20,000 bases of DNA from Jimgerdemannia flammicorona (lineage: Eukaryota), in contig RBNJ01000009.1 of assembly GCA_003990765.1 (NCBI GenBank), positions 46,635 through 66,634 on the forward strand, in the 5' to 3' direction. The notes under the pieces were generated by a model that was not told the DNA's origin, did no database searches, and was given only the letters and a program-made list of their open reading frames with translations. A program made the position numbers and the translations under genes. Positions 1-20,000 of this stretch are shown piece after piece; position 1 is the first letter of the stretch; the number at the start of each line of letters is the position of its first letter.

Positions 1-414
1 CTAGTCACTACACCACTAGCCCTTTTACTTGATATTCTCAAGAGAGCCCCTCTCAGCCCTCCAGCAGTAGCCCTCTCCTTGCCACCCTGTAGCCATCCAT
101 TCAGTTTAGCTACCAGATCCCTCTACTTAACCTTCTTAGCAAAGCTCTTCCACTTCTTCTCTAACTGTGCTATACCTCCTTCTCAATTGCTACCAACTCT
201 CCTTCCTCCTGACAAGATGTTTGGCATCCCAACTCTGCTCTCTGATCCCTCTCCACATACTGTCAGCTAAATATACTAGGGCCACTCTGCCTAGTACATT
301 CCATAGAACTCTAATTCAAGAACATATTCTTAAGATATTTCTCTAAAAAATAGTGTAAAAGTAGATAATATATGTTTGCATAATATGAGATATATCAGAA
401 AGAGATAGTGTGAC

Positions 415-2065
415 TAATAATACTATCTAGAAGATATTAAGTTTGATATCATTACTGACCATCAATTACTCAAGTATATTAATACTCAATCTACCCTATT
501 ATATCTATAAGTGAAATAGAGCCTAAAGCTTCAAAATTTTAATCTGATGATCATCTATAAGTCTTGCAAAATACTTATAGTACCAGATGTCTTATTCAGA
601 TATCCAGACCTTACCACAATTATACAAGTTACCTTGGTATCAGAATTCCTAGACCAAATTAAACAAGCTTATAAAGAAGACACTATTGTTACTAGAGTTT
701 TTTTGAATGAGCTTAAGGTTATATATATTATTATCAAAGACAACCTAATCTTCCATTAAGACAAAATCTATCAACTTGATAATATAAATCTATATTATAA
801 GATTCTACAAGAACACTATGACTCTCTACTCACTGATCATCTTAGAATTGAGAAAACTATCAAAAACATTCAGTATTACTACTATTGATTAAGTATGGTC
901 AAGGAAATCAAGAACTATATTACTAGCTATAATATCTGTTAGTATAACAAGCCTACCAATCAAGTACTAGCTGGTTTACTATAACTACTACTAATTCTCA
1001 TTAAGAAATTTAAACAAGTTATAATAGATTTTATAACTCAACTACTATGAATCTAATCTGATACTGATGCTATCATCATATTTATTGACTGCCTGACCAA
1101 AACTATAGTTGCTGAACCTACTATTACTAATATCACTATATCTGAGATTATAAGAATCTTCTTCAAGTCCATCTTTTATCACTATAGCCTACTATAAGTA
1201 ATTGTCAGTAACTATAATCTCAAGTTTACTAGTTATTTCTGGCAAACTCTCTTCAAAACTCTAGAAATCCAATTGGCTATATTTATTGTCTTTTACTTAC
1301 AAATTGATGAAAAAACTGAGCACATAAACAGAATCTTAGAATAAATACTCAGAAACTATATTTCTTATAAGTAAGATAATTGAGATTATTATATAACTTA
1401 TGTAGAATTTATATATAACAATACTGTCTAATTATCTACTGACCTTTTCTCCTTTCAGTCAAGATTCTGAGACCTCTATAAGTCTAGTTTCTTTTAAGAA
1501 AAATAGTTAAATTTAAGTTTTTACTACTAAGAACCTTATAAATAAAATAGATAAACTACTCAAGATCACTATTATGAATCTTCAGAAAGCCTAACAATAC
1601 TAAGCCAAGTATATTGATAAGAAATATGTAATGTCCAATATATTATTAGAGATCAAGTTCTACTATCTATCAAGAATTTCAAGATATATATAATCTCAAG
1701 TCAACTACTCTTCAAACAAATTTCAGTCTAAGTATATTAAACTCTTTAAGATTATCAAATAAGTCTCTATATTCTTCTATCATCTTAAGCTACTTGAAAC
1801 TATGAAGATACACTCAGTCTTTTATATATTATGTCTTAAGATCTAGAACCAGTCATTACTTTACTTTGATTAAATTCCCAAGTCATCTGCTTCTGTGATT
1901 ATTGGAGATCATATCAAGTACAAAATTGAGAAAATTCTTAATAAATAAATTTACTATTATTATTCTGAATATCTGGCCAAGTAGATGGGCTACTCTAAAT
2001 ATAATACTATCTGAAAACCATTAGTTAATCTCAAGAACTCCCAAGACCTAGTCCAAGACTTTAAG
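415..2065 (+). pseudogene. pol: pol remnant (RNase H-integrase-chromodomain)
   Basis: Motifs as above. Chromodomain remnant YKIEKILNK*...EYLAK*MGYSKY...*KPLVNLKNSQDLVQDF at ~1919-2065 matches the YEVEKIL...YLVKWKGY...WEP..NL pattern after reverting G>A changes. Confidence 0.85.
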
Positions 2066-2392
2066 GCAAAATATATTATCAAATCTCTATAGTGACTTTC
2101 TTGAATTATTGATAATCTATAGCAATTATTAGTGTCTTATATATTAAAAGTTTACTTTGGAACTCTAGAACTAGCAGAATATCTAGTAAATAAGAAGTAT
2201 ACTAAAATGAAACTACTAGTTGAATTTAAACCTCTCTCAAATAGTTAGTCTAATAATAGACCCTCTATCCTATACAAGGATGGCCAGTCTCTACTAATAT
2301 ACTAATATAAGTTTGAGAAATTTTGATTAACTATATTTAGTTTATATAATTTAAAAACTCAATAAGGATATTAGTTCTTAAGGAGAGAGGAG

Positions 2393-2847
2393 TGTAATAA
2401 TTGCATAGTTATATTTTAGTCTTAGTACTTTTTCACATCTTTTACTAGTTTTTTCTTAACTTTTTTTAAATATTTTACTATATTTCAGTATCTTTCAATT
2501 ACCTAGAAATCTTCTCTTAGTATTATTATACTACTAGAACATTTTTGTCTTTTCTCAGTACTAAGTATCTTGTTATAGAACCTTTTAGAACATTATAGAA
2601 TTCTATTAGTCATCTTTATCAAGAATCTATTTCTTTATCTTTCTCTTCTTTTCTAAAGATCCTTCTAGATTTTTCTTTCAGATCTTATATAAATATCCTT
2701 ATTTTCTACTTAAATAAAGCTCATAATATTTTCTTCCAGAATTTCTTTAAGAATACTTGAACCTATAAGTATCTCTTCAAGCTACTTTAGATCTACTAGA
2801 ATTACCAGACTTAGTCACTTTCTCTTAAAGAAACTAGAACTATTATA
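2393..2847 (+). repeat. 3' LTR of the chromovirus
   Basis: Starts TGTAA immediately after the PPT, with TATATAAA at ~2686 and AATAAA at ~2712. The end (TATTATA, a mutated ...ACA) is inferred from the point where the older element's protease remnant begins. Confidence 0.6.
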
Positions 2848-2850
2848 CTG

Positions 2851-2982
2851 AGTTTTTTTGTATCTTGAGTCTAAACTTTTTAGTGATCTTTTTATCAAAA
2901 TAGTACTTGCTTACTCTACTATTGATAAGGAATTCAACAAGATTTTCTTCAATTTTCCCTTATAAGTAGATATATTCAGAAT
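2851..2982 (-). pseudogene. Aspartic protease remnant of the older Gypsy element, truncated by the chromovirus
   Basis: Minus strand reads YIYL*GKIEENLVEFLINSRVSKYYFDKKITKKFRLKI. LINSRVS reverts to LIDSGAS by transitions alone. Confidence 0.75.
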
Positions 2983-3119
2983 TGTCTTCTTATCAGATAG
3001 CAATTATTTCTAAGGAGACTTCTTCTCAATCTTATATATCTCTATTTTTATTATTAATATTCTTAATTTCTTTATCTCATTATTCTGGAATGATTGGCTT
3101 ATAATTTTTGAATTTGAAA

Positions 3120-3224
3120 ACATATATGTATAATATATTCTTCTAAATATTTAAAATAGTATATCTTAACTTGATGAGGATATTATCTTACTGGAATATA
3201 TCTATTAATAATATACTAATACTA
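3120..3224 (-). pseudogene. Cys/His module remnant of the older element
   Basis: *Y*YIINRYIPVR*YPHQVKIYYFKYLEEYIIH aligns without gaps to WCKKIAEGYTPQGVCPHRIKIYCIEHVNDCYQC of the younger family. Confidence 0.65.
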
Positions 3225-3304
3225 TTTCTAGTCTCAGTCTTGAGATTTTTTAATGTAAATAATATTCTATATCTTGATCTTCTCCTTAGCCTTATCAGGA
3301 TACT

Positions 3305-3513
3305 TTTCTATTGATCTGAAAGTTTTTCCTCCTCTATTGAAGAGTGATATATAGTTTATTTGTTTCTTTAACTTCAAGGTTATTATATATTACCTCAATG
3401 ATAGCTTAGGTAATTCATTTTTTACATATAATTTTAACTACTTTCTATCTAGTATTGTATAGCAGAATCTTAATTTTATCTTTAAATTCTTAGTCTATAA
3501 CTCCTCTCGCTAT
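3305..3513 (-). pseudogene. dut: dUTPase 3' half (motifs 3-5) of the older Gypsy element
   Basis: IARGVID*EFKDKIKILLYN (motif 3), K*IT*AII (motif 4) and RGGKTFRSIE (motif 5). Joins in frame to the half ending at 10261 when copy A and one CTAT are removed. Confidence 0.85.
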
Positions 3514-3999
3514 TGTAATGTAGTGGACACTTACTCTTAAAAGTATGTTAGATTTCTGTATCTTGAAAACTTAACTGTTCTGACTCTCGCAGAGTCCTTT
3601 GAGTTGCAGGGGAGGGTGGGTAAGTTCAAAGTGTATCTGCCTGCAGGCTTACTAGTTCCTTTGCTATCTCTTTGCTTTGAACTATTTTGATCTAAGGCTT
3701 TATTCACTCTAAGATACTAGGTTATTTATACAAGTTTTGCTAGCTATGAGATGGCTAAGTTATGACTATATTTCCTATAAGTCATTTCTTTCACAAGTAT
3801 TAAATCCTTGACATCTATTAAATCTTTGACAATTGTCAAAGAGTTTAACATCTGTGAATAGTTTAACATTCATGAAAACTTTAATGTTTGTGAAATGACT
3901 ACTATCTGGGCTATACTATATTTGGGAATCAGATTCAGATACTGTGATCAAATGTCTTATTTCTCTGATTCATATTACTAATTCAGATCAACCATCACA
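3514..3999 (-). repeat. 3' LTR of copy A (486 bp)
   Basis: Direct repeat of 9777-10256 and reverse complement of the copy B LTRs. Confidence 0.96.
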
Positions 4000-4009
4000 A
4001 CTTTCTCCT
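4000..4009 (-). promoter_or_regulatory. Polypurine tract, copy A
   Basis: AGGAGAAAGT immediately before the 3' LTR on the minus strand. Confidence 0.8.
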
Positions 4010-4040
4010 GAATGGATGATTTGTCCCTGAAATATTCTAT

Positions 4041-4502
4041 TTACTCAAACTCTTATGCTTCTACGATTTGTATCTCCTTGTACTGTACAATTTGTATCAT
4101 TATATTCTCCCAATGATATCTTTTGATATATCTGAAATCTCCTGGGACTACTCCTCGAAAGTGGGCTAAGGCTGGTTTATCATCCTTGAACAACTTGTTG
4201 ATTTATTTGTTAATCATGATCTGAGCATAGAAAAGCTAGCACTCTCTAATCCAGTCTTCTTTTCTCATCTCTGACTGCAAATTCAGTAGTTGTCCCAGTT
4301 TGAAGTATTCCTGAAACTCAGTTTGGTTCTGGTAAGCTTTGAAGTGTGAAATTCATGACAGGTGTGTCTGGACTATACTCTGGATACTGTCAAAGGATTC
4401 CTCCATAACAGGCAGTTTGGTAGTGTACCATTGTCTTTTTATAGCTCGCTGTGTAGCACTAGTGATCTTGAGAGCTGAGGCAGTACTTCTCTGGTTAGCC
4501 AT
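4041..4502 (-). pseudogene. ORF3, unknown 153-aa protein (copy A)
   Basis: ATG overlaps the integrase stop. 462 nt, collinear with 17599-18060 without indels. Most internal stops are sense codons in the other copy. Confidence 0.75.
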
Positions 4503-5685
4503 AGTACCTCTTGAGTCAGTTTCAGTAAATAGTAGTGGGGATAATTGTGCCTAAGAGTTTTCATAGCCAAAAGGTGGTTCCTTTTATATCTTGCACAAGA
4601 TAAGGTCCTTCCCACTTGGGCTCCAGTTTTCATGACTATGAAGCTTCTACTATATTCTGATATACCAGGATTTTGTCTCCTATCTTGATAATCTCCAAGA
4701 GTTTGTAGGTCTTTTCTGCATTCTTTCATTGTAGTATCTGTGCCTTGGTTATGTAATCTTTGGTCTTCTTCCTGATTTGGTATAGTCTCCATATTTTTCC
4801 ATCTATATGTTTCCATATAGCATCTCCATTGGATGATAGGATTTCTCAAGAACTTTCTTCTCTGAACAGTATCTCTTGAGAGATAAAGTGGGTACTTTGT
4901 GATCTGATATCCTGGAGAGCAGATAATGCTATTGGCAGATAGTGATCCCAGTTTTCATAGTTATTACAGATCTTGGCAATAACATTCTTGAGGGTCTTAT
5001 TAGTCCTTTCTGCTTATCTGTTTCCTTGAGAGTAATAGGCTGTGGTCTGAATGTACTGGATCTTGTACTTCTTGTAGAGAACCTCAAAGAACTGGTTCAT
5101 GAATTCTGTTCCTCTATCTGTAGTTACTTATATTGGGGTCTTGAACTAGCAGATGATTTCTTTGTAGAAAAAATTGGTGATTAACTATGCATTGGCTTCC
5201 TTGAGGGGTCCTGCTTCTATTCATTTTGTAAAAAGGTCTACAATAACAATGATATATTGGTTACCAGTCAAGGTCAAGAGTAGAGGACTAATTACATCCA
5301 TTGCTATGTGGGTGAATGGTACTGGTTCTATGTGTGCTGATCCTAGGGTTTGGTTTTATTGATCTTGCTTCTGTTTCTGGCATTTGTTACAGGTTTTGAC
5401 AAATTGTCTGATATCTTCCTCCATTCCTGGCCACCATATCATTCTTCTTGTCTTATCATATGTATTTGTTCCTTCTAGATGGCCAAGTTTATATACTGAT
5501 TTCATTGCTTGCTCCTTCTTGTGTTCTGATATAACTAGTAGTTTTCCTTTCTTCAGTGTTTCTCTATTGGTTTCGAATTGTTTCCATGTTCTGTTGATAA
5601 TCTTTTGTATCTATTCTTTCAGATGTTGGGGCATCTTTTGCTGTCTCAGGTATGTGATGATTCTGTAGTAAAGTTCCTTATTCAT
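4495..5685 (-). pseudogene. int: ORF2, integrase (HHCC, DDE core, GPY/F), copy A
   Basis: Begins MNKELYY at an ATG overlapping the ORF1 stop. Contains WWPGMEEDIRQFVKTCNKCQK, IAMDVI, VTTDRGTEF and KWEGPY. No chromodomain. Confidence 0.9.
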
Positions 5686-8600
5686 GATCAATTTGTTGGT
5701 TGGCAGTATTTTGGGGTGTCCATGAGAGAGCATCTACATTGGAATTTGTTCTTCCAGGGTAGTACACAATGGTTACATCATAGACTTGTAGCTTCATTAT
5801 CCATCTGGTATAGATTTCTTTAGGTTGTCCAGTTGTAAGTAGCCAGGTGAGAGCTGAGTGGTCTGTCTGAATGGTGAAGTATCTTCTGGCCAGATAATAG
5901 TAGAACTTTTCCACAGCCTAGATAACTGCAAGATATTCCAACTTGTAAGATTTATATTCTTTTTCAGCTTCTTGAGTTCTGCAGCTAAGATATGCAATGA
6001 TATACTCTTTTTTGTCTTTCTTTTAAACTAGGACTGCTCCTAGTCCCTGTGCACTTGCATCTGTCTGCAGAATGAATTCTTAAGTCCAATTGGGTCATCT
6101 GAGGATGGGTGCCTGGGTCAGTCTGATCTTGAGTTCATCAAATGCTTTTTATTATCTGCCAGCCTACTGGAACTTGGTATCCTTCTTATTGAGTTCGTAA
6201 ATTGGACCTGTGATATTAGAGAATTCTCTAATAAATCTGCAATAGTAGGAGACAAGTCCCATGAAGGCTTAGGCTTCTGTAACAGTGGTGAGCCTTGGGT
6301 ATACTGCTACTGCTTATATCTTGAGGGGGTCTATGTGTGTTCCATCTCGATTGATAACATGGCCAAGGTAGGAGATATCAATTTCTGCAAACTTGCACTT
6401 CTTGGGTTTGATATAAAGGCCATATTGTCTTAGTCTCTCCATTATCTACCATATGTGCTGCAGATATTCCTCAGGTGTCTTGCTGTAGATGATTATATCA
6501 TCAACATAAACTATCATCCATCTTCCTATATCATAGCAGAAGATTTTATTCATTATTCATTAGAAGCTTACTGGTACATTACACATCCCAAATGGCATTT
6601 GCAGGTAGATATAGATTCCATCAGGGGTGATGAAGGCTGACTTTTCACTTGCCATTTCTGTGAGTCTGATTTGGTGGAATCCTAAGTATAAGTCTAAGGT
6701 GCTGTAGTACTGTGCTTTGTCTCCTAGTGTTATAAGGATGTCACTGATGAGGGGCAGTGGTTGGCAATCCTTCTTGATGACTGCATTGAGCTTTCTGTAG
6801 TCAATACAGAGTCTTGGGGCAAATTCTCCAAGTTTACTTCCTTTTTTGGGGGCTAGTACAACTGGTAAAGACCAGGGCTGCTGGCTTCTTTGATAATACC
6901 AGCTTCTTCCATCTGCTTGATTTCATCTCTGAGCCATTCTCAGTAGGCTGGCAGGACAGGTCTTGCCTTCTGGTAAATTGGTTCAGTGTCTCCAGTATCT
7001 ACCTCATGATAGTAGTGTAGAGTCTTTCCTTTGATATCCTTGAAGTCTGTGGCAAGGATATCCTCAAATTCATGAAGTATTTTCTTGAGTTCCTCCTTGA
7101 GTGGGAATTCATTTCTGATGATATAGCTGTGCTTGTTTGTGGTTTCCTCCTTCTTATGCTCCAGTTCAGTAATCTTGGTGCTGGTGAATACTCCTCTTCC
7201 TGTGGATCCAAATCCTTTCTTTCCTCTTTTTGTTTCCTCCAAATTCTTGACTTCTATGATCCTTGGTTGTAGGATTGGAAAGATCAGTATCTGTACCAAT
7301 TGGTCCTTCTTCTTGACTGGGAATGGAATTGAAGGATTGTGATTCCTGGTAATGAGCAGGATTTCTCCAGTATAGTCAGAATTGATGACTCCTCCTTTGA
7401 TAGTAATTTTGCTTCTGGCCAGACTGCTTCTTATCTTGAGGATCCCAACATAGTCCTTTGGAATGGTCATTTCTAGTCCAGTTACAAGTAGGGTGGTTGT
7501 CTGGGGTTCTAGTATGGCTTCTTCTACTATAGCAATGTCTATTCTGGCTATATTTTCTGACTTTTATTCTGGCAGGACTGTATCAGAGTGGGTTCTTCGA
7601 ATCTTGACCTTGATTTCTTCATCATCACTATCCTCCAGGAGGGCTGGTGGTTCATCATCTTCCTCCTCCTTCTCTTCCCTGATCTGTTCTTTGAGAGCTT
7701 TCTGTCTTCTTTCCTGGTGGATCTTTTTGATTCTGATGGTGCACTGGTAGCAATCATTGACATGCTCTATACAGTATATCTTGATCCTGTGAGGACAGAC
7801 TCCTTGTGGTGTATAGCCTTCTGCAATCTTCTTGCACCATTCTTCTTCACTCATCCATCCTACTTTCTTCTTTGGAATAGTTACCATATAGGCTTCCTCT
7901 TGCTCACTCTCTTCTTCCTCCATGTCAGACAAGACTCCTTTGTTGACATTGATGGAAATTTGTATCTTCTGTCCCTGATAGGTGATTTGCATCTTCTGAG
8001 CATTGAGGTCAATTAATGCCTTAGCTTTGTGAAATCATTGATTGTCAATGAGAATATCATAGTTGGTGACATTAGTTATGATTACATTTACTGGGATGGT
8101 TGCTCCTCTAATCTCAATGGAGACATCTCAGATCTTTCCCAGAGGGTGGCTCTTGTGTCATCTGCTGTGACAAATACCAACTTGGTTACTTCTTCAACCT
8201 CTCAACCTAGGTGGTCTGCTGCCTTCTTGCTGAGAAGATATTCTTCTGCTCCAGTATCAATAATGGCTTCAAAGATTCTATCTTCAATCTGGCATATTAC
8301 ATAGGTAGAGGTTTTGCGATTATCTTTGCTCTCTTCTCCTGAGTCTTCTTGAATATTGTTGGTCTTGGTTATCTTCCATCCTTGTTCCTTGGTTGTTTTG
8401 GTAAGTCTGAACCTCATTTGCTATCTGAATGTTGAGATTTCTACAAGCTGACCAAAAGTTACATTGACCTTTTATTGGCTAAGGTCCTTGAAGATATCAT
8501 ACTTGAAAGTCTTGGTCTTGTGAAGTTTCTTTTCTTTTTCTCCTTTACTAGCTAGAGTGGTTCCTTAGATAATATCTTGAACTGCTTGCTCCAGCTCCAT

Positions 8601-9662
8601 ATCTTGGTCTATCTCTTCAGCTTGGCTTTCTGTAGCAGTTTCCATCTGCTTTTTCACTGAGTTCTTTTTGGGTCTTCTCAGCAGTCTCTTGTAGGGCTCT
8701 TTGCAAACATCCTTCTTAGTAGTCTGGGCAGAATAGGCCTCCCATTCTTCTTTGTCAGAATCTCTAATTTCTTCAAAGGTAATTGTGTTGGTCTGCTCTT
8801 TATTTCTAGTAGCATTACTTGGCTGAGCCTTGTGCTTGGTTTTGCTCATGCATTTGTAGGAGTAGTGGCCTTCTTCTCCACAGGTATAGCAGGTACCTTT
8901 CTTCTTGTCTGAGGTAGTAGCAAACTTCTGAACAGGGTGGCAGTCTCTTCCTCTGATCTCTTTTATCACATCTCTTAGGTAGACAGTCATTTCTGCAAAC
9001 CTTTTAGTAAGTTCCTCCAAAGGGTCACTGTTCTTTTGCTACTCTGTAGCTTTGGGCTGAGGTGTGTTTCAATTGATCATCATGGTAGGAATCACACTAG
9101 TTGCCTTAGATACTTCAATTCTGACTCCTGTAACCCTCTCCATTGTATGGTCTTGTGGGTGTCTGGCTATCCAGTATCACTGAGCATAGGTGACCTTCTG
9201 TAGCAGATCCAGAATCACTAGTGATGAGTAGATGGCCATGGCTATCTCTGGGTGGACTCCTTTCATAAAGGTTGCTTTGGCTACTTGGTCTCAGATAACA
9301 TCAGCATAATCTGCAAGGATTATCTGGTATCAGATTCTTGTGTAGAATGTGTTTGGATCTTCACTCATTCCTTAGTATATTGTGTTGAGCTGGTCTTTTA
9401 GAGCTTGCTTGATCTCATCTATATAGTAGGTAGTTTGAAGCCAGGTCTTTTGTGCTATCAGTGTAGCACCAGTATTATTTTCCATATAGTTTTCAGCTGT
9501 GAATACTGCTCTTGCAGGGCCTCATAGGCTAAAGGGTATAAGGGCTACTTGCTGTGCTGCTGTTAGGGTTCTTACAGCAGCATACTGCTCAAAATCATCA
9601 ATGAAGGTAATGATTGATTCATCTGAGGTATATCCATAGAATACTGGTGGTCTCATATCCAT
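5678..9662 (-). pseudogene. gag-pol: ORF1, Gag-PR-dUTPase-RT-RNase H (copy A)
   Basis: Zn knuckle CYTCGEEGHYSYKC, protease IIDTGA, dUTPase motifs, RT RLCIDYRKLN and YVDD (~6497-6508), RNase H QTDAS...TDHSAL...DALS. Contains stops plus two 1-bp deletions in C-runs relative to copy B. Confidence 0.93.
7198..7614 (-). pseudogene. dut: dUTPase domain between PR and RT (copy A)
   Basis: RSSLA (motif 2), GGVINSDYTGEI (motif 3), DQLVQIL (motif 4), RGKKGFGSTG (motif 5). Confidence 0.95.
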
Positions 9663-9755
9663 CTTGTCTGAGTATTGGGGCTCAGTTTATATAGTTGTTC
9701 AGGTAGTGGCAGTTGTTTGTTGTTCAGCTTGAAAGTGAGGAATTCATCTTGAATC

Positions 9756-9773
9756 ATCAGCCAATAGGCACCA
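9756..9773 (-). promoter_or_regulatory. Primer-binding site, copy A
   Basis: TGGTGCCTATTGGCTGAT begins 3 nt (ACT) after the 5' LTR. TGG is complementary to the tRNA CCA end. Confidence 0.8.
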
Positions 9774-9776
9774 AGT

Positions 9777-10256
9777 TGTAACATAGCAGATGCTTACTCT
9801 TGAAAGTATATCAGATTTCTATATCTTGAAAACTTGACTGTTCTGACTCTCACAGAGTTCTTTGAGTTGCAGGGGAGGGTGGGTGAGTTCAAAGTATATC
9901 TGCCCACAGGCTTACTAGTTCCTTTGCTATCTCTTTGCTTTGAACTATTTTGATCTAAGGCTTTATTCACTCTAAAATACTAGGTTATTTATACAAGTTT
10001 TGCTAGCTATGAGATGGCTAAGTTATGACTACATTTCCTATGAGTCATTTCTTTCACAAGTGTTAAATCCTTGATATCTATTAAATCTTTCATTAAAGAG
10101 TTTAACATCTATGAATAGTTTAATATTCATGAAAACTTTAATGTTTATAAAATGACTGCTATCTGGGCTATACTATATTTAGGAATCAGATTCAGATACT
10201 GTGATCAAATGTCTTATTCCTCTGATTCATGTTACTAATTCAGATTAACCATTACA
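9777..10256 (-). repeat. 5' LTR of copy A (480 bp)
   Basis: Direct repeat of 3514-3999 with a 6-bp deletion near 10090. Confidence 0.96.
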
Positions 10257-10260
10257 CTAT

Positions 10261-10469
10261 ATAGAGTCTCTCTTCTTTGACTAGACTACTTTTTTCTATA
10301 AGACAGATATAGGTTTCTTTAGAAACTTCTATTCTAATATCTATGCTAATAGTTACTTACTTATTGATTCTATGGTTACTTCTATATTAGAGTAGAGATT
10401 ATAGCCAGCATTAGATTTATATACTTTATCTGAGATTTTATAGTAATATAAAATCTCTTGATTTTGATT
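10261..10469 (-). pseudogene. dut: dUTPase 5' half (motifs 1-2) of the older Gypsy element
   Basis: IKIKR...KSNAGYNLYSNIEVTIE (motif 1, from SDAGYDLYS), then IRIEVSKETYICLIEKSSLVKEERLY (motif 2). Small frameshifts are present. Confidence 0.85.
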
Positions 10470-11430
10470 TTCCCAGATATTTCTTTGAGATCATCTTCTA
10501 TTATAGTAATAGTATGTGAGTAAAATAGTTCTTTATTCATATTAGTCTTTTTGTCAGAATATTTGTAAGATATATATTCTCTCTTTTTTATAGTAGAAAC
10601 ATACTTCTTTCTTTATAAGTTTCTCTATTTTCTTTTAGACAAATTTTTAAATTCTCTTTATAATTTTGGAGAGTTATTTTAAGATTTATATTTCTTCTTG
10701 AATTAACATTATTTGTCTTCTTTATTGTTGTTTCTGTTGTTTCTTAGTCTTTGAGCTGCTAAGATAGTATATACTCTAGTAATAGCTTATCCTAAGTACT
10801 ATTGTTCATATGAATAATTATAGAGTTATTCTTGCTCTCCAATCTTTTCTGATAATTATTTAAGAATAGTATCAAAGAAGTATATTACTCTGGTTCTATT
10901 TATAGTTTGTTCTTATTAGCTATATTCTACTCTTATAGTATTCAGAAGAGTTTCTAATCTTATTATAAATACTTCTAAGTTATCTTTTCTATTATTATAG
11001 AATTAGAAATTCTTGAGCTTAGTTCTGACTTTAGTAATATAAGTAGAGCTGTGAAACTATTGAATGATTAGCTCTTTTAGACCTATGATATCTGGATAGA
11101 CTTTATAGTTAGAGTAATTATTATCTCTTTTACTTATATCAATTTTGATATAGATTTTTTAGATAAAAGAGTATACTAGTATATTATGCCACTACTGAGC
11201 AACTATATCTGTAAAATGAGTAGTGACTTTTTCTACTTATAAATCTATAATTATATAGAGATCTTCAATCTTATAGTACTCATTATTATTAAGAGTACTG
11301 TTTAGGTTCTGATTATTATTTCATCCATTAGCATAATAATTAATATTGACTTATTCTATAAATATTATTATTTAATCTGCTTTATTTTTAAATAATATAA
11401 GTCAGAGATCTTTCATAAGGTTATTTGTTT
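10470..11430 (-). pseudogene. gag: gag remnant of the older Gypsy element
   Basis: A CCHC knuckle remnant at ~10550-10602 (KLIKKEVCFYYKKE.[fs]YISYKYSDKK, reverting to CFYCKKEGHISYKCPDKK) lies directly upstream of the dUTPase. The upstream limit is a guess. Confidence 0.65.
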
Positions 11431-11527
11431 TGATTTTTTAATTTTTTGATTTTATGGACTTAGAGTCCTGTAGATTTTTATTAGAAGGGAACCTAAATTA
11501 TATAGGCCAAAACCCTCCCCTATCACC

Positions 11528-11697
11528 TGTTATTTGTTTTGATACTGAGGTGAAAGACTTGAATAAATATAGTCACTTAATTAGTCAGAACTGCTATCTT
11601 TTATCTATCAATATCATTCTACTATTCTCATTACTTATATAGTAAGATAGTAGTAATCTTTCTTTAGATACTATTACCTTGAAGATAGTGTGATATA
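11528..11697 (-). repeat. Possible 3' part of the older element's 5' LTR
   Basis: Minus strand has TATATAAG at ~11640 and ends ...AATAACA before a G-rich GGTGATAGGGGAGGG leader upstream of gag. No second copy is in the window to confirm it. Confidence 0.4.
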
Positions 11698-11839
11698 TAG
11701 TACTCCTAATAAATTAAATTGAATTGAATTTAACTCAAATTTAATTTGATTTAATTGAATTAAAGATCCAATTCAATTCAATTCAATTTGAAATTTAATT
11801 TGAACTTTATTTTTCAAAATATAATAACTTGACAAATAT
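11698..11839. mobile_element. hAT-like foldback MITE, left part
   Basis: Terminus TAGTACTCCTAATAAATTAAATTG is an inverted match to 18765-18789. Flanked by GTGATATA (11690-11697). Confidence 0.75.
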
Positions 11840-12325
11840 TGTGATGGTTGATCTAAATTAGTAACATGAATCAGAGGAATAAGACATTTGATCACAATAC
11901 CTGAATCTAATTCCCAAATATAGTATAACCCAGATAGCAGTCATTTCACAAATATTAAAGTTTTCATGAATGTTAAACTATTTACAGATGTTAAACTCTT
12001 TGACAATTGTTAAAGATTTAACAGATGTCAAGGATTTAATACTTGTGAAAGAAATAACTTATAGGAAATATAGTCATAACTTAGCCATCTTATAGCTAGC
12101 AAAACTTGTATAAATAACCTAGTATCTCAGAGTAAATAAAGCCTTAGATCAAAATAGTTCAAAGCAAAGAGATAGCAAAGGAACTAGTAAGTCTGTGGGC
12201 AGATATACTTTGAACTCACCCACCCTCTCCTGCAACTTAAAGAACTCTGCGAGAGTCAGAATAGTCAAGTTTTCAAGATACAAAAATCTGACATACTTTC
12301 AAGAGTAAGTGTCTGCTACATTATA
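11840..12325 (+). repeat. 5' LTR of copy B (486 bp)
   Basis: TGTGATGG...CATTATA, with the terminal CA mutated to TA. Confidence 0.95.
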
Positions 12326-12328
12326 ACT

Positions 12329-12346
12329 TAGTGCTCATTGGCTGGT
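12329..12346 (+). promoter_or_regulatory. Primer-binding site, copy B
   Basis: TAGTGCTCATTGGCTGGT (TGG>TAG) 3 nt after the LTR, homologous to the copy A PBS. Confidence 0.75.
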
Positions 12347-12439
12347 GATTCAAGATGAATATCTCACTTTCAAGCTAAATAATAAACAACTGTTACTACC
12401 TGAACAACCATATAAACTGAGTCCCAATACTCAGACAAG

Positions 12440-15400
12440 ATGGATATGAGACCACTAGTATTCCACAGACATATCTCAAATGAATCAATCATCACCTTCA
12501 TTGATTATTTCAAGTAGTATATTGCTGTAAGGACTCTGACAGCAGCACAGCAAGTAGCCCTTATGTCCTTTAGCCTACAAGACCCTGCAAGAGTAGCATT
12601 CACAGCTGTAAAATATGTGAGAAATGATGCCAGTGCTACACTGATAGCACAGAAGACCTGGCTTCGAACTACCTACTATATAGATGAGATCAAGCAAGCT
12701 CTAAAGAACCAGCTCAACACAATATGCCAAGGAATAAGTGAAGATCCAAATATATTCTACACAAGAATCTAATACTAGATAATCCTTGCAGATTATACTA
12801 ATGTTATCTGAGACCAAGTAGCTGAAGTAACCTTCATAAAAGGAGTCCACCCAGAGATAGCCATAGCCATCTGCTCATCACCAGTAATTCTGGATCTACC
12901 ACAGAAGGTCACCTATGCTCAGTGATACTGGATAGCTAGACACCCACAAGACTATACAATGGAGAGGGTCACAGGAGTCAGAATCAAAGCATCTAAGGCA
13001 ACCAGTATGATCCCTATCATGATGATCAATTGAAACACACCTCAGTCCAAAGCTACAGAACAGCAAAAGAACAGTGATCCTTTGGAGAAACTTACCAAAA
13101 GGTTCATGGAAATGACTGCCTATCTGGGAGATATGGTAAAAGAGATCAGAGGAAGAGACTGCTGCCCTGTTCAGAAGTTTGCTACCACCTCAGACAAGAA
13201 GAAAGGTACCTGCTATACCTGTGGAGAAGAAGGCCACTACTCCTATGAATGTATAAGCGAAACCAAGTGCAAGGCCCAGCCAAGTAATGCTACTAGAAAT
13301 AAGGAGTAGACTAATACAATTACCTTCAAAGAAATTGAAAATTCTGATGAAGAAGAATGGGAGGCCTATCCTGCCCAGACCACTAAGAAGGATGTTTGCA
13401 AAGAGCTCTATAAGAGACTGCCAGGAAGACCCAAGAAGAACCCAGTGGAAAAGCAGATGGAAACTGCCACAGAAAGCCAAGTCGAAGAGATGGACCAAGA
13501 TATAGAGCTGGAGCAAGCAGTTCAAGATATTATCCAAGGAACTGCTCTAGTCAGTGAAGGAGAAAAAGAAAAGAAACTTTGCAAGATCAAGACTTTTAAG
13601 TATAATATCTTCAAGGACTTTAGCCAATAAAAGGTCAATGCAACTTTTGGTCAGCTTGCAGAAATCCCAATATTCAGACAGCAAATGAGGTTCCGACTTG
13701 CCAAAACAACCAAGGAACAAGGATGAAAGATAACCAAGACCAACAATATTCAAGAAGACTCAGGAAAAGAGAGTGAAGATAATTGCAAAACCTCTGCCTA
13801 TGCAATATACCAGATTGAATATAGAATCTTTGAAGCTATCATCAATACTGAAGCAGAAGAATATCTTCTCAGCAAGAAGGCAGCAGACTGCCTAGGTTGG
13901 GAGGTTGAAGAAGTAACTAAGTTGGTATTCATTACAGCAGATAGCACAAGAGCCACCCCTCTGGAAAAGATCCGAGATGTCTCCATCAAGATTGGAGGAG
14001 CAATCATCTCAGTAGATATAATCATAACCAATGCCACCAACTATGACATTCTCATTGGCAATCAATGGCTTCACAAAGCTAGGGCAGTAATTGACCTTAA
14101 TGCTCAAAAGATGCAAATCACCTATTAGGGACAGAAGATATGAATTCCCATCAATGTCAATAAAGGAGTCTTGCCTGATATAGAGAAAGAAGAGAGCAAG
14201 CAAGAGAAAGCCTATATGGTAACTATTCCAAAGAAGAAAGTAGGATAGATGAGTGAAGAAGAATGGTGCAAGAAGATCACAGAAGGCTATGCACTACAAG
14301 GAGTCTGTCCTCACAGGATTAAGATGTACTGTATGGAGTATGTCAATGATTGCTACCAGTATACCATCAGAATCAAAAAGATCCACTAGGAAAGAAGACA
14401 GAAAGCTCTTGAAGAACAGGTCAGAGAAGAGAAGGAGGAGGAAGATGATGAACCATCAGCCCTTCTGGAGGACAGTGACAATGAAGAAATCAAGGTCAAG
14501 ATTTGAAGGACCCACCCTGATGTAGTTCTGCCAGAATACAAGTCAGAAAATGTAGCCAGAATGGACATTGCCACAGTAGAAGAAGCCATACTGGAACCCC
14601 AGACAACCACCCTACTTGCAACTGGACTGAAAATGACCATTCCAAAGGACCATGTTGGGATCCTTAAGATAAGAAGCAGCCTGGCCAGAAGCAAAATTAC
14701 TATTGAAGGAGGAGTCATCAATTATGACTATACTGGAGAAATCCTGCTCATTGTCAGAAATCACAATCCTACAATTCCATTCCCAGTCAAGAAGAAGAAC
14801 TGATTGGTACAGATGCTGATCTTTCCGATCCTACAACTAAGGATCATAGAAGTCAAGAATTTGGAGGAAATGAAAAGAGAAAAGAAAAGATTTGGATCCA
14901 CAGAAAGAGGAGTATTCGTCAGCACCAAGATCACTAAACTGGAGCATAAGAAGGAGGAAACCACAAACAAGTACAGCTACACCATTGGAAATGAATTCTC
15001 ACTCAAGGAAGAACTCAAGAAAATACTCTATGAATTCAAGGATGTCCTTGCCACAGACTTTAAGGATATCAAAGGAAAGACTCTGTACTACTATCATGAG
15101 GTAGATACTAGAGATACTGAACCAATTTACCAGAAGGCAAGACCTGTCCCACTAGCCTACTGAGAATGGCTCAGAGAAGAAATCAAGCAGATGGAAGAAG
15201 CCAGTATTATCAAAGAAGCCAGCAGCCCCTGGTCTTTACCAGTTATACTAGCCCTGAAAAAAGGAAGTAAGTCTGGAGAATTCACCCCAAGACTCTGTGT
15301 TGACTACAGAAAGCTCAATGTAGTCACCAAGAAGGATCACCAACCACTGCCCCTCATTAGCAACATTCTTATAACACTAGGAGATGAAGTACAGTACTAC

Positions 15401-16426
15401 AGCACCTTAGACTTGTACTCAGGATTCCACCAAATTGGACTCACAGAAATGGCAAGTGAAAAGTCAGCCTTCATCACCCCTGATAGAACCTATATCTACC
15501 TGTGAATGCCATTTGGGATGTGCAATACACTAGCAAGCTTCTAATGAATAATGAACAAAATCTTCTACTATGACATGGGAAGATGGATAATGGTTTATAT
15601 TGATGATGTAATCATCTACAGCAAGACACCTGAGGAACATCTGCAGCACATATAGCAGATAATAGAGAGACTAAGACAACATGGCCTTTACATCAAACCC
15701 AAGAAGTACAAGTTTGCAGAAATTGAGATCTTCTACCTTGGCCATGTTATTAATCGAGATGGAACATATATGGACCCCCTCAAGATACAAGCAGTAGCAG
15801 CATACTCAAGGCCTGCTACTGTTACAGAAGCCCAAGCCTTCATGGAATTTGCCTCCTACTATTGCAGATTTATTAGAGGATTCTCCAACATCACAGATCC
15901 AATCTATGAACTCAATAAGAAGGATACCAAGTTTCAGTGGGCTGGTAGACAACAAAAAGCATTTGATGAACTCAAGATCAGACTGATCCAGGCACCCATC
16001 CTCAGATAACCCAATTGGACTCAAGAATTCATTCTGCAGACAGATGTAAGTGTACAGAGACTAAGAGCAGTCCTAGCTCAAAAGAAAGACAAAAAAGAAT
16101 ATGTCATTATATACCTTAGCTATGGAACCCAAGGAGCTGAAAAAGAATATGAATCCTACAATTTGGAATGTCTTATAGTTATCTGGGCTGTGGAAAAGTT
16201 CCACTACTACCTGGCTAAAAGACACTTCACTATCCAGACAGACCACTTAGCTCTTATCTGACTACTGACAACTAGACAACCTAAAGGAATCTATATCAGA
16301 TGGATAATGAAGCTACAAGTCTATGATGTAACTATTGTACACTGCTCTGGAAGAACAAATTCCAATGCAAATGCTCTCTCATAGACATCCTGAAATACCG
16401 CTAACTAATAAATTGATCATGAATAA
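12440..16426 (+). pseudogene. gag-pol: ORF1, Gag-PR-dUTPase-RT-RNase H (copy B; 1328 codons in one frame, interrupted only by stops)
   Basis: ORF-track fragments starting 12563, 13082, 13445, 13922, 14561, 14804, 15191 and 15770 share one frame. Motifs: CYTCGEEGHYSYEC, IINTEA (from DTGA), dUTPase, SPWSLPV, LCVDYRKLN, LDLYSGFHQI, YIDD (~15596-15607) and RNase H. The start ATG is inferred. Confidence 0.94.
14489..14905 (+). pseudogene. dut: dUTPase domain between PR and RT (copy B)
   Basis: RSSLA, GGVINYDYTGEI, LVQML, RFGST. Confidence 0.95.
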
Positions 16427-17606
16427 GAAACTTTACTATGGAATCATCACATATCTGAGACAGTGAAAGATGCCCCAATATCTGGAAGAATGGGCATAAA
16501 AGATTATCAATAGAACATGGAAATAATTTGAAACTGATAGAGAAACACTGAAGAAAGAAAAACTACTAGTTATATCAGAACACAAGAAGGAGTAAGCAAT
16601 GAAATCAGTACATGAACTTGGCCATCTAAGAGGAACAAATACATATGACAAGGTAAGAAGAATGATATAGTGGCCAGGAATGGAGGAAGATATTAGACAA
16701 TTTGTCAAAACCTATGACAAATGCCAGAAACAGAAGCAAGACCAACAAAACCAAGCTCCAGGATCAGCATGTATAGAACCAGTACCATTCACCTACATAG
16801 CAATAGATGTAATTAATCCTCTACCCTTAACCTTGACTGGCAACTGATATATCATTGTCATCATAGACTTTTTTACAAAATGGATAGAAGCAGAACCCCT
16901 CAAGGAAGCCAATGCACAGTTAATCATTGATTTCTTCCACAAAGAAATCATCTGTCAGTTCAAGACCCCAATACAAGTAACTACAGATAGAGGAACAGAA
17001 TTCATGAACCAGTTCTTTGAGGTTCTCTACAAGTACAAGATCCAGCACATTCAGACCACAGCCTATCACCCTCAAGGAAATAGATAAGCAGAAAGGACCA
17101 ATAAGACCCTCAAGAATATTATTGCCAAGATCTGTAATAACTATGAAAACTGGGATCACTATCTGCCAATAGTATTATCTGCTCTCTGGGATATCAGATC
17201 ACAAAGTACCCACTTTATCCCTTGAGAGATACTGTTTGGAGAAGAAAGTTCTTGAGAAATCCTATCATCCAATGGAGATGCTATATGGAAACATGTGGAT
17301 GGAAAAATACAGAGACTATACGAAATCAGGAAGAAGGCCAAAGATTACATAACCAAGGCACAGATACTATAATGGAAGAATGCAGAAAAGACCCACAAAC
17401 TCTTGGAGATTATCAAGATAGGAGATAAAGTTCTGGTGTATTAGAATATAGTAGAAGCTTCATGGTCATGAAAACTGGAGCCCAAGTGGGAAGGACCTTA
17501 CCTTGTGCAAGATATAAAAGAGACCACCTTTTGGCTACGAAAACTCTCAGGTACAATCATCCCTACTACTATTTACTGAAACCAACTCAAGAGGTACCAT
17601 GGCTAA
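16419..17606 (+). pseudogene. int: ORF2, integrase (copy B)
   Basis: ATG at 16419 lies in the +1 frame and overlaps the ORF1 stop (16424-16426). Contains VHELGHL...TYDKCQK, IAIDVI, TTDRGTEF, AYHPQGN and KWEGPY. Ends YHG*. Confidence 0.9.
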
Positions 17607-18060
17607 TCAGAGGAGTACTGCCTCAGCTCTCAAGATCACTAGTGCTGCACAGTGAGCCATAGAAAGACAATGGTGCACCACCAAACTACCTGTTATAGAG
17701 GAATCTTTTGACAGTATCCAGAGCATAGTCCAGACACACCTGTCATGAATTTCACACTTCAAAGCTTACCAGAACTGAACTGAGTTTCAGGAATACTTCA
17801 AACTGAGATAACTACTGAATTTGCAGCCAGAGATGGGAAAAGAGGACTGGATTAGAGAGTGTCAGCTTTCCTATGCTCAGATCATGATTGCCAAACAAAT
17901 CAACAAGTTGTTCAAAGATGATGAACCAGCCTTAGCCCACTTTTAAGAAATAGTCCTAGGAGATTTCAGATATATCAAAAGATATCATTAGGAGAACATA
18001 ATGACACAAATTGCACAGTATAAGGAAATACAAATTGTAGAAGCATGGGTGTTTGAGTAA
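17599..18060 (+). pseudogene. ORF3, unknown 153-aa protein (copy B)
   Basis: ATG overlaps the integrase stop, and the ORF ends 20 nt before the PPT. Collinear with copy A. Confidence 0.75.
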
Positions 18061-18080
18061 ATAGAATGTTTTACCTATTC

Positions 18081-18090
18081 AGGAGGAAGT
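18081..18090 (+). promoter_or_regulatory. Polypurine tract, copy B
   Basis: AGGAGGAAGT directly before the TGTAATGG LTR start. Confidence 0.8.
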
Positions 18091-18576
18091 TGTAATGGTT
18101 GATCTGAATTAGTAACATGAATCAGAGGAATAAGACATTTAATTGCAGTACCTGAATCCAATTCCCAAATATAGTATAGCCCAGATAGCAGTTATTTCAC
18201 AAATGTTAAAGTTTTTACAAACATTATACTATTCACAGATATTAAACTCTTTGACAATTATCAAAGATTTAATAGATATCAAGGATTTAACACTTGTGAA
18301 AGAAATGACTCATAGGAAACATAGTCATAACTTAGCCATCTCATAGCTAGCAAAACTTATATAAATAACCTAGTATCTTAGAGTGAATAAAGTCTTAGAT
18401 CGAAATAGTTCAAAGCAAAGAGATAGCAAAGGAACTAGTAAGCCTACAGGCAGATATACTTCAAACACACCCACTCTTCTCTGCAACTCAAAGGACTCTG
18501 TAAGAGTCAGAACAGTCAAGTTTTCAAGATACAGAAATCTGACATACTTTCAAGAGTAAGCATCTGTTATATTATA
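18091..18576 (+). repeat. 3' LTR of copy B (486 bp)
   Basis: Direct repeat of 11840-12325, followed by TSD ATAT. Confidence 0.95.
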
Positions 18577-18580
18577 ATAT

Positions 18581-18789
18581 CCAAATTTAGTGATATTTAA
18601 CTTATTAGATTCTTCTATATAAGATGAATTTAAGAAGCTAAATATCATTAAATTTGGATGTATTTTTAACAAGTTATTATATTTCTAAAAATAGAATTCA
18701 AATTAGACCCTTAATTCAATTTGAATTTGATTCAATTCAAAATTTATTTGAATTAAAAAATCTCCAATTTAATTTATTTATGAGCACTA
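18581..18789. mobile_element. hAT-like foldback MITE, centre and right part
   Basis: Internal hairpin CCAAATTTAGTGATATTTAAC...GCTAAATATCATTAAATTTGG. 18669-18703 is inverted to 11798-11832. Ends ...GAGCACTA, followed by GTAATGTA. Confidence 0.75.
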
Positions 18790-19854
18790 GTAATGTATAG
18801 TTATTTTTTCTATAATAGAACTTAGTAATTAGTCTATAAGTTTATAATTTTAATAGAGTTATTACTAGATCTTCTGTAGTAATTTTTAATAGACTTGATA
18901 TTCTTAGTAGTAGATCTATAATAGTATTAGAGTTACCAGTATTAGGTTTTGGGTATTTCTTCAACTATTCTTTTAGATCATAATAATATAATAGAGACTT
19001 TACTAAGTCTAGTAGTTTATAATCCTTACTATTAGATTATCTTTACTTATATATAGGGAACTCAGTAGTAGAGATGAGATTTCCTTTAGTTAGTATAATA
19101 TCTTTTATAGTTTAAAAAGGGGTTGACTTTATAGTAGTAGTTAATAGAGAAAAAATTCAAAAAATATTTACTTATAGCTTTAATTGATTTTCTTATTAAT
19201 TTTTTGAGTATAGATAACCTTTATTGAGTATAATGAATATATCAAATACTTCTTAGATGATTTTATTATTAAGTCTATTAAATTCCTTTTAGCTAGTATG
19301 AGTCTCAGTCTACTTAGTAATAATTCTATTAGCTTTTTTGACTTAGTTTTAGAGAGTAGTCAGAGTGAAGATATTCTTTTATTATTACTAATAATATTAG
19401 TAATATTGACTGAGTTATCTATATTTGTAGTAGATTTCTTAAGAAAACCTTACTTGTAGATAGAAGTAACTTTTACTACTACTAAATTATATACTAATAG
19501 AATTAATATTTATAAATAATTAAGATTGACTATCAGCTCTAAGTTTTGAGTTCTTGTAAAGAAGTACTAAGTTTCAATTATCTATTATAGTAATGTAATC
19601 TAAGTATTACTTTCAGATTCTTGTAAAAGTATCATACTTATATCTTAAGTTAATCAGGTTTGAAATTATTAATAAGTTAGATCTAAGAGTTTTATAATAA
19701 GAATACTACTTTATTCTTATATTCAGAAAAAGTAGAGCTAAGGTTATAATATATTCAATATAGAGAGTATTTATATAGATTTGAAACTATAACTAAAAAT
19801 AATATATATACTAGATATATCTATATATAGTTATACTATATTTAGTATCTATAG

Positions 19855-20000
19855 TGTGATGGTACAGCCGAATTTGGAAGAAGGAAATAGGGAATAGACA
19901 CTTGATCGCACCCATTCCCAAAGTAGTATAGCCTTATAGTTAGCAGTCCTCGATTTCGACATTGTCTAAATTCTTAGACATTATCCAAATCGAATACCCC
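19855..20000. mobile_element. Probable start of another, younger LTR element (runs off the window)
   Basis: Abrupt switch from very AT-rich DNA to sequence with 5 CpGs in 146 bp. Begins TGTGATGGT like the A/B LTR terminus and is preceded by ATAG. Confidence 0.5.

Follow-up and report, generated by a model that had tools for sequence, protein, structure and literature searches.

Here we analyzed a stretch of 20,000 nucleotides from Jimgerdemannia flammicorona (NCBI GenBank assembly GCA_003990765.1, contig RBNJ01000009.1, positions 46,635 to 66,634 of the forward strand), which is referred to below, at its full length, as the window. The window consists of two blocks of about 40% GC within DNA of 22-28% GC, and repeat finding showed that these blocks are inverted copies of one element, each with direct terminal repeats of approximately 486 nt. 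The element is a Ty3/Gypsy long terminal repeat (LTR) retrotransposon with a dUTPase between the protease (PR) and the reverse transcriptase (RT). In both copies, which we designate A and B, the space between the integrase (IN) gene and the polypurine tract (PPT) is filled by a third open reading frame (ORF), ORF3, for which no relative was detectable outside the element family. The protein encoded by ORF3 has experienced purifying selection of a strength comparable to that acting on RT, RNase H (RH) and integrase.

Alignment of ORF3 from copy A with ORF3 from copy B covered 462 nt with zero indels, and the only internal stop that the copies have in common is the TGA at codon 50 (Table 1). The original prediction, which was made from the sequence of the window, had described just such a frame of 462 nt without indels in both copies, in which each internal stop but one faces a sense codon in the other copy; coordinates, content and stops are confirmed by our alignment. 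The window copies were aligned with 19 database proteins, and the residues of these proteins at the stop positions were counted. Arginine was found at position 19 in all 15 proteins that cover it and at position 100 in 16 of 16, glutamine at position 89 in 15 of 17, and tryptophan at positions 131 (8 of 8) and 150 (5 of 5). The other positions were more mixed: position 50 holds R in 13, W in 2 and Q in 2 of 17 proteins, position 60 holds R in 9, Q in 3 and other residues in 5 of 17, position 71 holds Q in 14 and E in 4 of 18, and position 116 holds R in 9, W in 3, Q in 2 and Y in 1 of 15. Since the homologues have R, Q or W at the stop sites, the stops are of the type that C>T or G>A changes produce. 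The arginine in 13 of 17 homologues also bears out the earlier suggestion that the shared stop at codon 50 arose from CGA>TGA, and a double independent hit on this codon is unremarkable because nearly all CpG dinucleotides have been destroyed in both copies.

When 5.8 billion proteins were searched by word index, 10 matches to ORF3 emerged, with 63-81% identity and E-values from 2e-30 to 3e-60, and a cluster look-up yielded 8 additional members, bringing the number of database relatives to 18; the database annotation of these relatives holds nothing beyond 'hypothetical protein'. Four of them (P0003, P0013, P0016 and P0020) are intact proteins of 153 amino acids (aa) with pairwise identities of 69-85%. 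The remaining relatives are fragmentary and come from contigs 500-900 nt long; some of these relatives are likewise decaying copies, because they have W or Q where others have R. Wherever a database protein extends over the N-terminus, as 14 of them do, it has the same MAN start. P0002 was also searched exhaustively with phmmer in a set of 1.84 billion cluster representatives. Of the 6 matches at E<=0.001, none was accepted as a relative beyond the family: P0006, P0007 and P0022 are members of the family, and P0021, P0023 and P0024 are tandem-repeat or repetitive helical proteins that were judged to be spurious compositional matches.

Scans of viral contigs and of prokaryotic genome contigs found no ORF3, and the scan of metagenome contigs revealed one related locus, L001 (6479 nt), a near-intact element that encodes P0013. 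Its gag-PR-dUTPase-RT-RH ORF of 1258 aa is open, with the dUTPase at residues 625-752 of the ORF, and its ORF3 is intact at 5795-6256; the integrase frame has a single in-frame stop, which lies in the core at 5077-5079. The DNA divergence between L001 and the window copies is 28%, and the DNA comparisons below rest on these three copies, A, B and L001. The 3' LTR of L001 contains a tandem repeat at 6400-6479, with a unit of 18-19 nt in at least 4 copies, which runs to the end of the contig and is absent at the matching place in the window LTRs. A further candidate, L002, was obtained from the viral contigs in a scan with pol profiles, but with 32% identity and a single ORF of 1511 aa it falls outside the clade of the window element.

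Selection was assessed by codon-level comparison of L001 with copies A and B, region by region. For ORF3, the proportion of synonymous differences (pS) was 0.67-0.70 and that of nonsynonymous differences (pN) 0.12-0.13, giving a dN/dS of 0.07-0.09. The corresponding values of pS, pN and dN/dS were 0.53-0.55, 0.11 and 0.12-0.14 for integrase; 0.69, 0.16-0.17 and about 0.10 for RNase H; 0.72-0.79, 0.16-0.17 and 0.085 for RT, where one of the two comparisons was saturated; 0.56-0.59, 0.20 and 0.19-0.22 for the dUTPase; and 0.74-0.75, 0.21-0.23 and 0.09 for gag, where one comparison was also saturated. All of these dN/dS values are approximate because the synonymous divergence (dS) of the window copies from L001 is close to saturated, which tells against leaning on their exact size, and the true constraint on ORF3 is stronger than the figures because hypermutation of the window copies can only raise pN. 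As a frame control, the count was repeated in all three sense frames for the portion of ORF3 lying beyond the overlap with the integrase tail. The in-frame pN/pS was 0.18-0.22 (bootstrap 0.12-0.33), compared to 0.80-0.82 and 1.57-1.59 in the other two frames, and over approximately 137 codons of L001 the ORF3 frame contains 0 stops, compared to 8 in each of the two alternative sense frames. Differences between L001 and the window copies were distributed over the first, second and third codon positions of ORF3 as 34:16:63 and 31:14:66, a pattern similar to that of the integrase (76:40:134 and 67:41:135). The dN/dS values between copies A and B (0.27 for ORF3 and 0.33-0.60 for the pol domains) were set aside as uninformative, since nearly all differences between these copies are post-insertion transitions. 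With intact homologues of 153 aa and a frame-specific purifying selection as strong as that on the pol domains, ORF3 is a genuine gene, as had been proposed, and the dN/dS values from L001 speak for that proposal.

The window copies owe their inactivation to hypermutation, C>T and G>A, which resembles repeat-induced point mutation (RIP) and which the original prediction had not remarked upon. Of 6736 sites aligned along the full element, 661 differ between copies A and B; 640 of these differences are transitions and 21 are transversions. At 311 sites the difference is between CpA or TpG and TpA (194 CA versus TA and 117 TG versus TA), and at 66 further sites one copy has CA and the other TG, which marks a lost CpG. 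The observed/expected ratio of CpG is 0.04-0.05 in copies A and B versus 0.44 in L001. For the flanks (1-3510, 10261-11835 and 18581-20000), not one CpG was counted in two of the three, which together make up 5072 nt; TpA/ApT was 1.13-1.28 and (CpA+TpG)/(ApC+GpT) was 0.60-0.94. Such dinucleotide indices are the classical marks of RIP, a fungal process, and the mutation pattern in itself points to a host that is probably fungal and in which RIP is or was active. For genome annotation this is of practical importance, since decay of the RIP type conceals real genes of transposable elements from ORF finders.

The boundaries of the copies were established by inspection of the LTRs and of the target-site duplications (TSDs), and the domains of copy B by scanning its three sense frames, with stops read through as X, against Pfam (Table 1). 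Copies A and B are independent insertions and not the products of a segmental duplication, because their TSDs differ. They lie 1.58 kb apart, inserted into AT-rich DNA. The distance from the ORF3 stop to the PPT or LTR is 21-44 nt, and the integrase terminates directly after its GPY/F-type SH3 region. No match to the chromodomain PF00385 was found in the integrase frames of copy B (E<=0.01) or L001 (E<=1), in agreement with the original view of this integrase. In the left flank, where GC is 25-28%, we also found the remnant of an older and far more decayed Ty3/Gypsy integrase at ~790-954 and ~1700-1840 (+), with matches to Integrase_H2C2 (E=1.5e-9) and SH3_Tf2-1 (E=1.1e-5); the two younger copies therefore occupy an old, degraded region that is rich in transposons.

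Table 1. Features of the two element copies in the window. Positions are those of the window unless L001 is named; approximate boundaries are marked ~.
Feature	Position	Strand	Remarks
Copy B, LTR retrotransposon	11840-18576	+	LTR/TSD boundary inspection
Copy B TSD ATAT	11836-11839 and 18577-18580		4 bp
Copy B 5' LTR	11840-12325	+	486 nt, TGT...ATA (ACA originally)
Copy B leader and gag(CCHC)-protease-dUTPase-RT-RNase H frame	12326-16426	+	decayed; Pfam scan
Copy B CCHC knuckle	~13205-13252	+
Copy B aspartic protease	~13841-14122	+
Copy B dUTPase	~14528-14902	+	between protease and RT
Copy B RT	~15290-15751	+
Copy B RNase H	~15938-16324	+
Copy B RNase H-ORF stop / IN start overlap TCATGAATAAG	16417-16427	+	ATG 16419-16421, TAA 16424-16426
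Copy B integrase ORF	16419-17606	+	decayed; +1 frame relative to gag-PR-dUTPase-RT-RH
Copy B integrase H2C2 zinc finger	~16581-16739	+
Copy B integrase rve core	~16797-17072	+
Copy B IN stop / ORF3 start overlap ATGGCTAA	17599-17606	+	ATG 17599-17601, IN TAA 17604-17606 in preceding frame
Copy B ORF3 pseudogene	17599-18060	+	153 codons and stop; 6 internal stops (codons 19, 50, 60, 71, 116, 131)
Copy B PPT AGGAGGAAG	18081-18089	+	just before 3' LTR, 21 nt past ORF3 stop
Copy B 3' LTR	18091-18576	+
Copy A, same element as copy B	3514-10256	-	LTR/TSD boundary inspection
Copy A TSD ATAG	10257-10260 and 3510-3513		4 bp, sense strand
Copy A 5' LTR	9777-10256	-
Copy A RNase H-ORF stop / IN start overlap TCATGAATAAG	5677-5687	-
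Copy A IN stop / ORF3 start overlap	4495-4502	-	as in copy B
Copy A ORF3 pseudogene	4041-4502	-	153 codons and stop; 4 internal stops (codons 50, 89, 100, 150)
Copy A 3' LTR	3514-3999	-
L001 RNase H-ORF stop / IN start overlap TCATGAATAAG	~4608-4620

The domains of the element, in the order gag-PR-dUTPase-RT-RH, then IN, then ORF3, occupy three successive frames, with a +1 step from the gag-to-RNase H ORF to IN and another from IN to ORF3. At the RH/IN junction the stop-start overlap ATGAATAA is present in all three DNA copies, and the 11-mer TCATGAATAAG is identical in L001, A and B although the 30 nt upstream of it differ widely. The IN/ORF3 junction has the stop-start overlap ATGGCTAA in both window copies, with the same geometry as the RH/IN junction, a parallel that the original prediction had not drawn. 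The start of ORF3 is conserved as ACCATGGC(T/A)AA, and its ATG stands in the context ACCATGG in copy B and L001 and ACTATGG in the third copy.

The closest pol relatives that carry a dUTPase are metagenome proteins with 42-50% identity in the pol region searched, and the named animal and plant pol matches are without dUTPase. Pol proteins of the dUTPase-bearing clade are 36-47% identical in full-length alignment. All 10 pol ORFs examined from this clade stop 10-35 residues past an ADALSR-like motif, which is exact in 8 and variant in 2, and none of them includes an integrase domain; P0103 was left out of this count because its tail lies in the dUTPase domain. Since 10 of 10 clade ORFs end without an integrase, a separate integrase cistron seems, from these sequences, to be a feature of the whole dUTPase-bearing clade, and the RH/IN split is possibly programmed. 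In open-access texts we found no published account of ORF3, nor of an integrase split off as its own cistron in Gypsy elements that carry a dUTPase (main texts without supplements, and with no search aimed specifically at an ORF3 of fungal Ty3/Gypsy elements).

Based on this layout, the element would be tricistronic, with gag-PR-dUTPase-RT-RH, IN and ORF3 each read in the +1 frame of the preceding cistron. Because each downstream ATG lies on or beside the upstream stop (ATGAATAA and ATGGCTAA), the cistrons may be translationally coupled, and it is plausible, if somewhat short of probable, that IN and ORF3 are translated from the full-length RNA by termination-reinitiation, with decreasing amounts of product. 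Two observations weigh against this reading. The integrase frame of L001 continues for 14 codons beyond the ORF3 ATG, to a stop at 5836-5838, which is at odds with strict termination-reinitiation. In addition, folding of the 111 nt that precede the two junctions was no more stable than that of shuffled sequences (z = +0.9, +2.1 and +1.3), and so there is no sign of a pseudoknot or of an element like the termination upstream ribosomal binding site (TURBS).

The four intact ORF3 proteins have a mass of about 18 kDa, a pI of 5.7-8.8 and a grand average of hydropathy (GRAVY) of about -0.6. None of them has a transmembrane stretch, the highest Kyte-Doolittle mean over 19 residues being 0.17-0.46. 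Since the proteins are hydrophilic and without a hydrophobic segment, they have no signal peptide or membrane anchor, and ORF3 is not an envelope protein. Consistent with this, none of the 21 members matched the env families in Pfam, save for a noise-level match of one member to Glycoprotein_B (E=0.15), and P0001, P0002 and P0013 matched no family of Pfam at E<=10. Conservation is focused on residues 35-74, in a block of the form ISHFKAY...EFQEYFKL, and four tryptophans are conserved. Searches of Pfam, NCBIfam and PHROGs gave no significant match to ORF3, and the best BLASTP match of P0013 to the Gag-Pol of L001 had an E-value of 0.75. In a profile search of the Protein Data Bank (PDB), likewise without a significant match, L-asparaginase (E=0.045) and the TrfB repressor (E=1.3) came up and were treated as noise. 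AlphaFold2, run on an alignment of 21 rows, produced an all-helical model of seven helices with a mean predicted local distance difference test (pLDDT) score of 50.3; the alignment is shallow, with all rows at least 60% identical to the query. The original prediction of a soluble, non-env protein of a kind not recognized thus stands, and so does the helical nature attributed to it as far as the all-helical model goes, the confidence of that model being low.

The only recurrent Pfam match was HTH_Tnp_Mu_2, the I-gamma helix-turn-helix (HTH) subdomain of Mu, which was seen in 4 of the 21 members with a best E-value of 0.031. The neighbors found with a protein language model were small phage or plasmid nucleic-acid-binding regulators with scores of 0.90-0.95 and 131-175 of 256 features shared; these neighbors, all sub-threshold, include a T4-type translation repressor, HTH_3, DUF3102 and a closterovirus coat protein. 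Several points speak against reading nucleic-acid binding into these results: the best HTH_Tnp_Mu_2 match, at 14.1 bits, lies below the gathering cut-off of 20.5, the hint from TrfB is below significance, the language-model neighbors are sub-threshold in feature overlap, and the near-neutral pI of ORF3 is unlike that of the basic nucleic-acid chaperones. Combined, the hints from sequence and profile comparison point, if anywhere, only faintly towards a nucleic-acid-binding fold that is small and helical.

On balance, ORF3 in the window is the inactivated remnant of a genuine accessory gene, which belongs to one narrow family of dUTPase-bearing Ty3/Gypsy elements without a chromodomain, and we hold the explanation given here, with its proposals on expression and role, to be as a whole somewhat more probable than not. 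The ORF3 protein would be a non-enzymatic helical adaptor within the element's own nucleoprotein complex, which is the weakest step of the proposal. A binding or adaptor protein is favored because no catalytic motifs or known domains are present, and a role within the replication machinery is favored over one in an arms race because the nonsynonymous rate is low. As to what might be bound, it is conceivable, with more doubt than confidence on our part, that ORF3 binds the RNA or cDNA of the element for handling of the Rev/CERV kind or for packaging. That it would be a cofactor of the integrase in targeting or assembly, in replacement of the missing chromodomain, appears unlikely. Targeting, integrase chaperoning and anti-silencing, the roles put forward in the original prediction, thus stay hypothetical candidates. 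Still more speculative, and in our judgment improbable, is the combination of two consecutive ATG-on-stop reinitiation sites with an ORF3 product that would be a helical integrase cofactor of new fold and would have taken over the choice of target site from a lost chromodomain.

The foremost alternative to this explanation concerns the expression of ORF3, which could take place from a spliced subgenomic mRNA, as is the case for env and for cerv of the Cer1 element of Caenorhabditis elegans, the product serving as a Rev/CERV-like factor for the unspliced genomic RNA, in its nuclear export, stabilization or packaging. According to one survey, ORFs at the env position are typically translated from spliced messages (PMC5408684), and CERV, as its published description has it, is a non-env and lineage-restricted protein encoded at the same position and required for the export of genomic RNA (PMC10309623). 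The strong ACCATGG at the ORF3 ATG in two of the three DNA copies fits ordinary scanning on an mRNA of its own. In L001, moreover, the integrase stop is not adjacent to the ORF3 ATG. However, splicing would not account for the conserved position of the ATG on the stop, which recurs at the RH/IN junction; moreover, the exhaustive phmmer search found no sequence similarity outside the family, there is no arginine-rich or other recognizable RNA-binding motif, and the pI is near neutral. We grant this alternative a minor share of the probability and regard it as unlikely. The IN/ORF3 junction could also be read as a site of +1 ribosomal frameshifting, which would make ORF3 a C-terminal extension of the integrase and a targeting domain in place of the chromodomain that this integrase lacks. 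The step from IN to ORF3 is indeed +1, as is that from RH to IN, and a window for frameshifting is present, since the ORF3 frame is open for 14 (L001) to 28 (copy B) codons before its ATG. Against this, the ORF3 ATG is conserved together with its Kozak-like context, 14 of 14 proteins that cover the N-terminus begin at MAN, no known +1 shift site was identified, and no longer or fused form of ORF3, such as an IN-ORF3 fusion, was found among 8000 scored candidates, the last being weak evidence. We hold frameshifting to be very unlikely.

The two other explanations bear on what ORF3 is for. A counter-defense protein, which would suppress RNA silencing, repeat-targeted mutation or methylation, would suit the restriction of ORF3 to a single lineage without outside relatives, as is typical of arms-race genes, and the host evidently attacks these elements by hypermutation. 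Yet the pN of ORF3 (0.12-0.13) is one of the lowest of the element and compares with 0.16-0.23 for RT, RH, dUTPase and gag, which is the opposite of the fast evolution of an arms race, and renders such a function improbable. That the open frame is a by-product, either a chance ORF or the reflection of a conserved cis-acting RNA or DNA element, might be argued from its location next to the PPT, where cis elements lie, and from the absence of any protein annotation beyond 'hypothetical protein'. This explanation is contradicted by the frame-specific pN/pS, by the dominance of third-position changes, by the count of 0 in-frame stops against 8 and 8, and by the existence of four intact versions of 153 codons at 69-85% identity, and we give it hardly any credence.

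Extra ORFs at the env position are common in LTR retrotransposons, and to our knowledge almost none of them has a known function, CERV of Cer1 being among the few cases that have been worked out. ORF3 is small, strongly constrained, intact in natural copies and free of known domains, and is for that reason a tractable candidate for learning what such genes do. What is perhaps more unusual is the tricistronic layout with its starts on stops, which ORF3 has in common with the integrase. If this geometry reflects translational coupling, termination-reinitiation, known to date from RNA viruses and a single non-LTR element, would gain LTR retrotransposons as a further case. Should the combination of two reinitiation sites with ORF3 as a targeting cofactor be true, it would represent a new way of setting the stoichiometry of pol products as well as a new targeting module.

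With respect to known systems, Ty3/Gypsy elements with a dUTPase have been described in fungi, namely PosPlaTy3-5 of Postia placenta, elements of Phanerochaete and Tmt1 of Tuber. As in the window element, the dUTPase of PosPlaTy3-5 lies between protease and RT according to the text of that report (PMC2864245). The fungal dUTPase elements so described are chromoviruses that bear a chromodomain, whereas the window integrase is without a chromodomain match; this comparison is one of descriptions. Termination-reinitiation at stop-start overlaps is documented for caliciviruses, for M2/BM2 of influenza B, for the fungal viruses CHV1 and HvV190S and for the non-LTR retrotransposon SART1 (PMC10275272, PMC2699510). 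In these systems, as here, an out-of-frame stop and an AUG share nucleotides or nearly do so, as UAAUG or AUGA there and as AUGGCUAA and AUGAAUAA in the present element. The differences are that in the present element the stop follows the A of the AUG at a distance of 5 nt instead of directly overlapping the AUG, with the integrase stop of L001 as far as 41 nt after the AUG, and that no upstream structured element was detected.

CERV of Cer1 resembles the predicted product of ORF3 in that, by the available description, it is a non-env, lineage-restricted and largely helical accessory protein encoded at the env position (PMC10309623), and it shows that ORFs at this position can be essential regulators, in that case of the export of genomic RNA (PMC10309623). 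As described in the same text, CERV differs by its 517 aa, its five-exon spliced mRNA and an N-terminus in common with Gag (PMC10309623). In contrast, ORF3 has 153 aa, is unspliced as far as the DNA shows and is unlike its own Gag-Pol, the two proteins having been compared by description only; the exhaustive phmmer search, in a library whose entries are without names, returned no nematode protein. More generally, the extra ORFs at the env position of LTR elements are reported to be family-specific and without homology to gag or pol, with functions that are mostly unknown (PMC5408684), and to occur in plants, bdelloid rotifers, nematodes (CERV) and fungi, where they are labeled 'add. ORF' (PMC5408684, PMC2864245, PMC11963269, PMC10309623). 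ORF3 resembles this class, as these texts present it, by its location on the sense strand after the integrase and before the PPT and the 3' LTR, and the elements of bdelloid rotifers resemble the window element, according to the same sources, in their PR-dUTPase-RT-RH-IN order and in having several types of non-env ORF3. It differs from the class in that no sequence relation was detected, phmmer having given in-family matches only, in that, at 153 aa, it is of far smaller length and lacks any enzymatic, transmembrane or recognized coiled-coil domain, and in that its ATG overlaps the integrase stop. Judged by its sequence, ORF3 belongs to no described extra-ORF family; by its position, its conservation and its independence of gag and pol it belongs to the extra-ORF class, an assignment that is positional and not one of homology.

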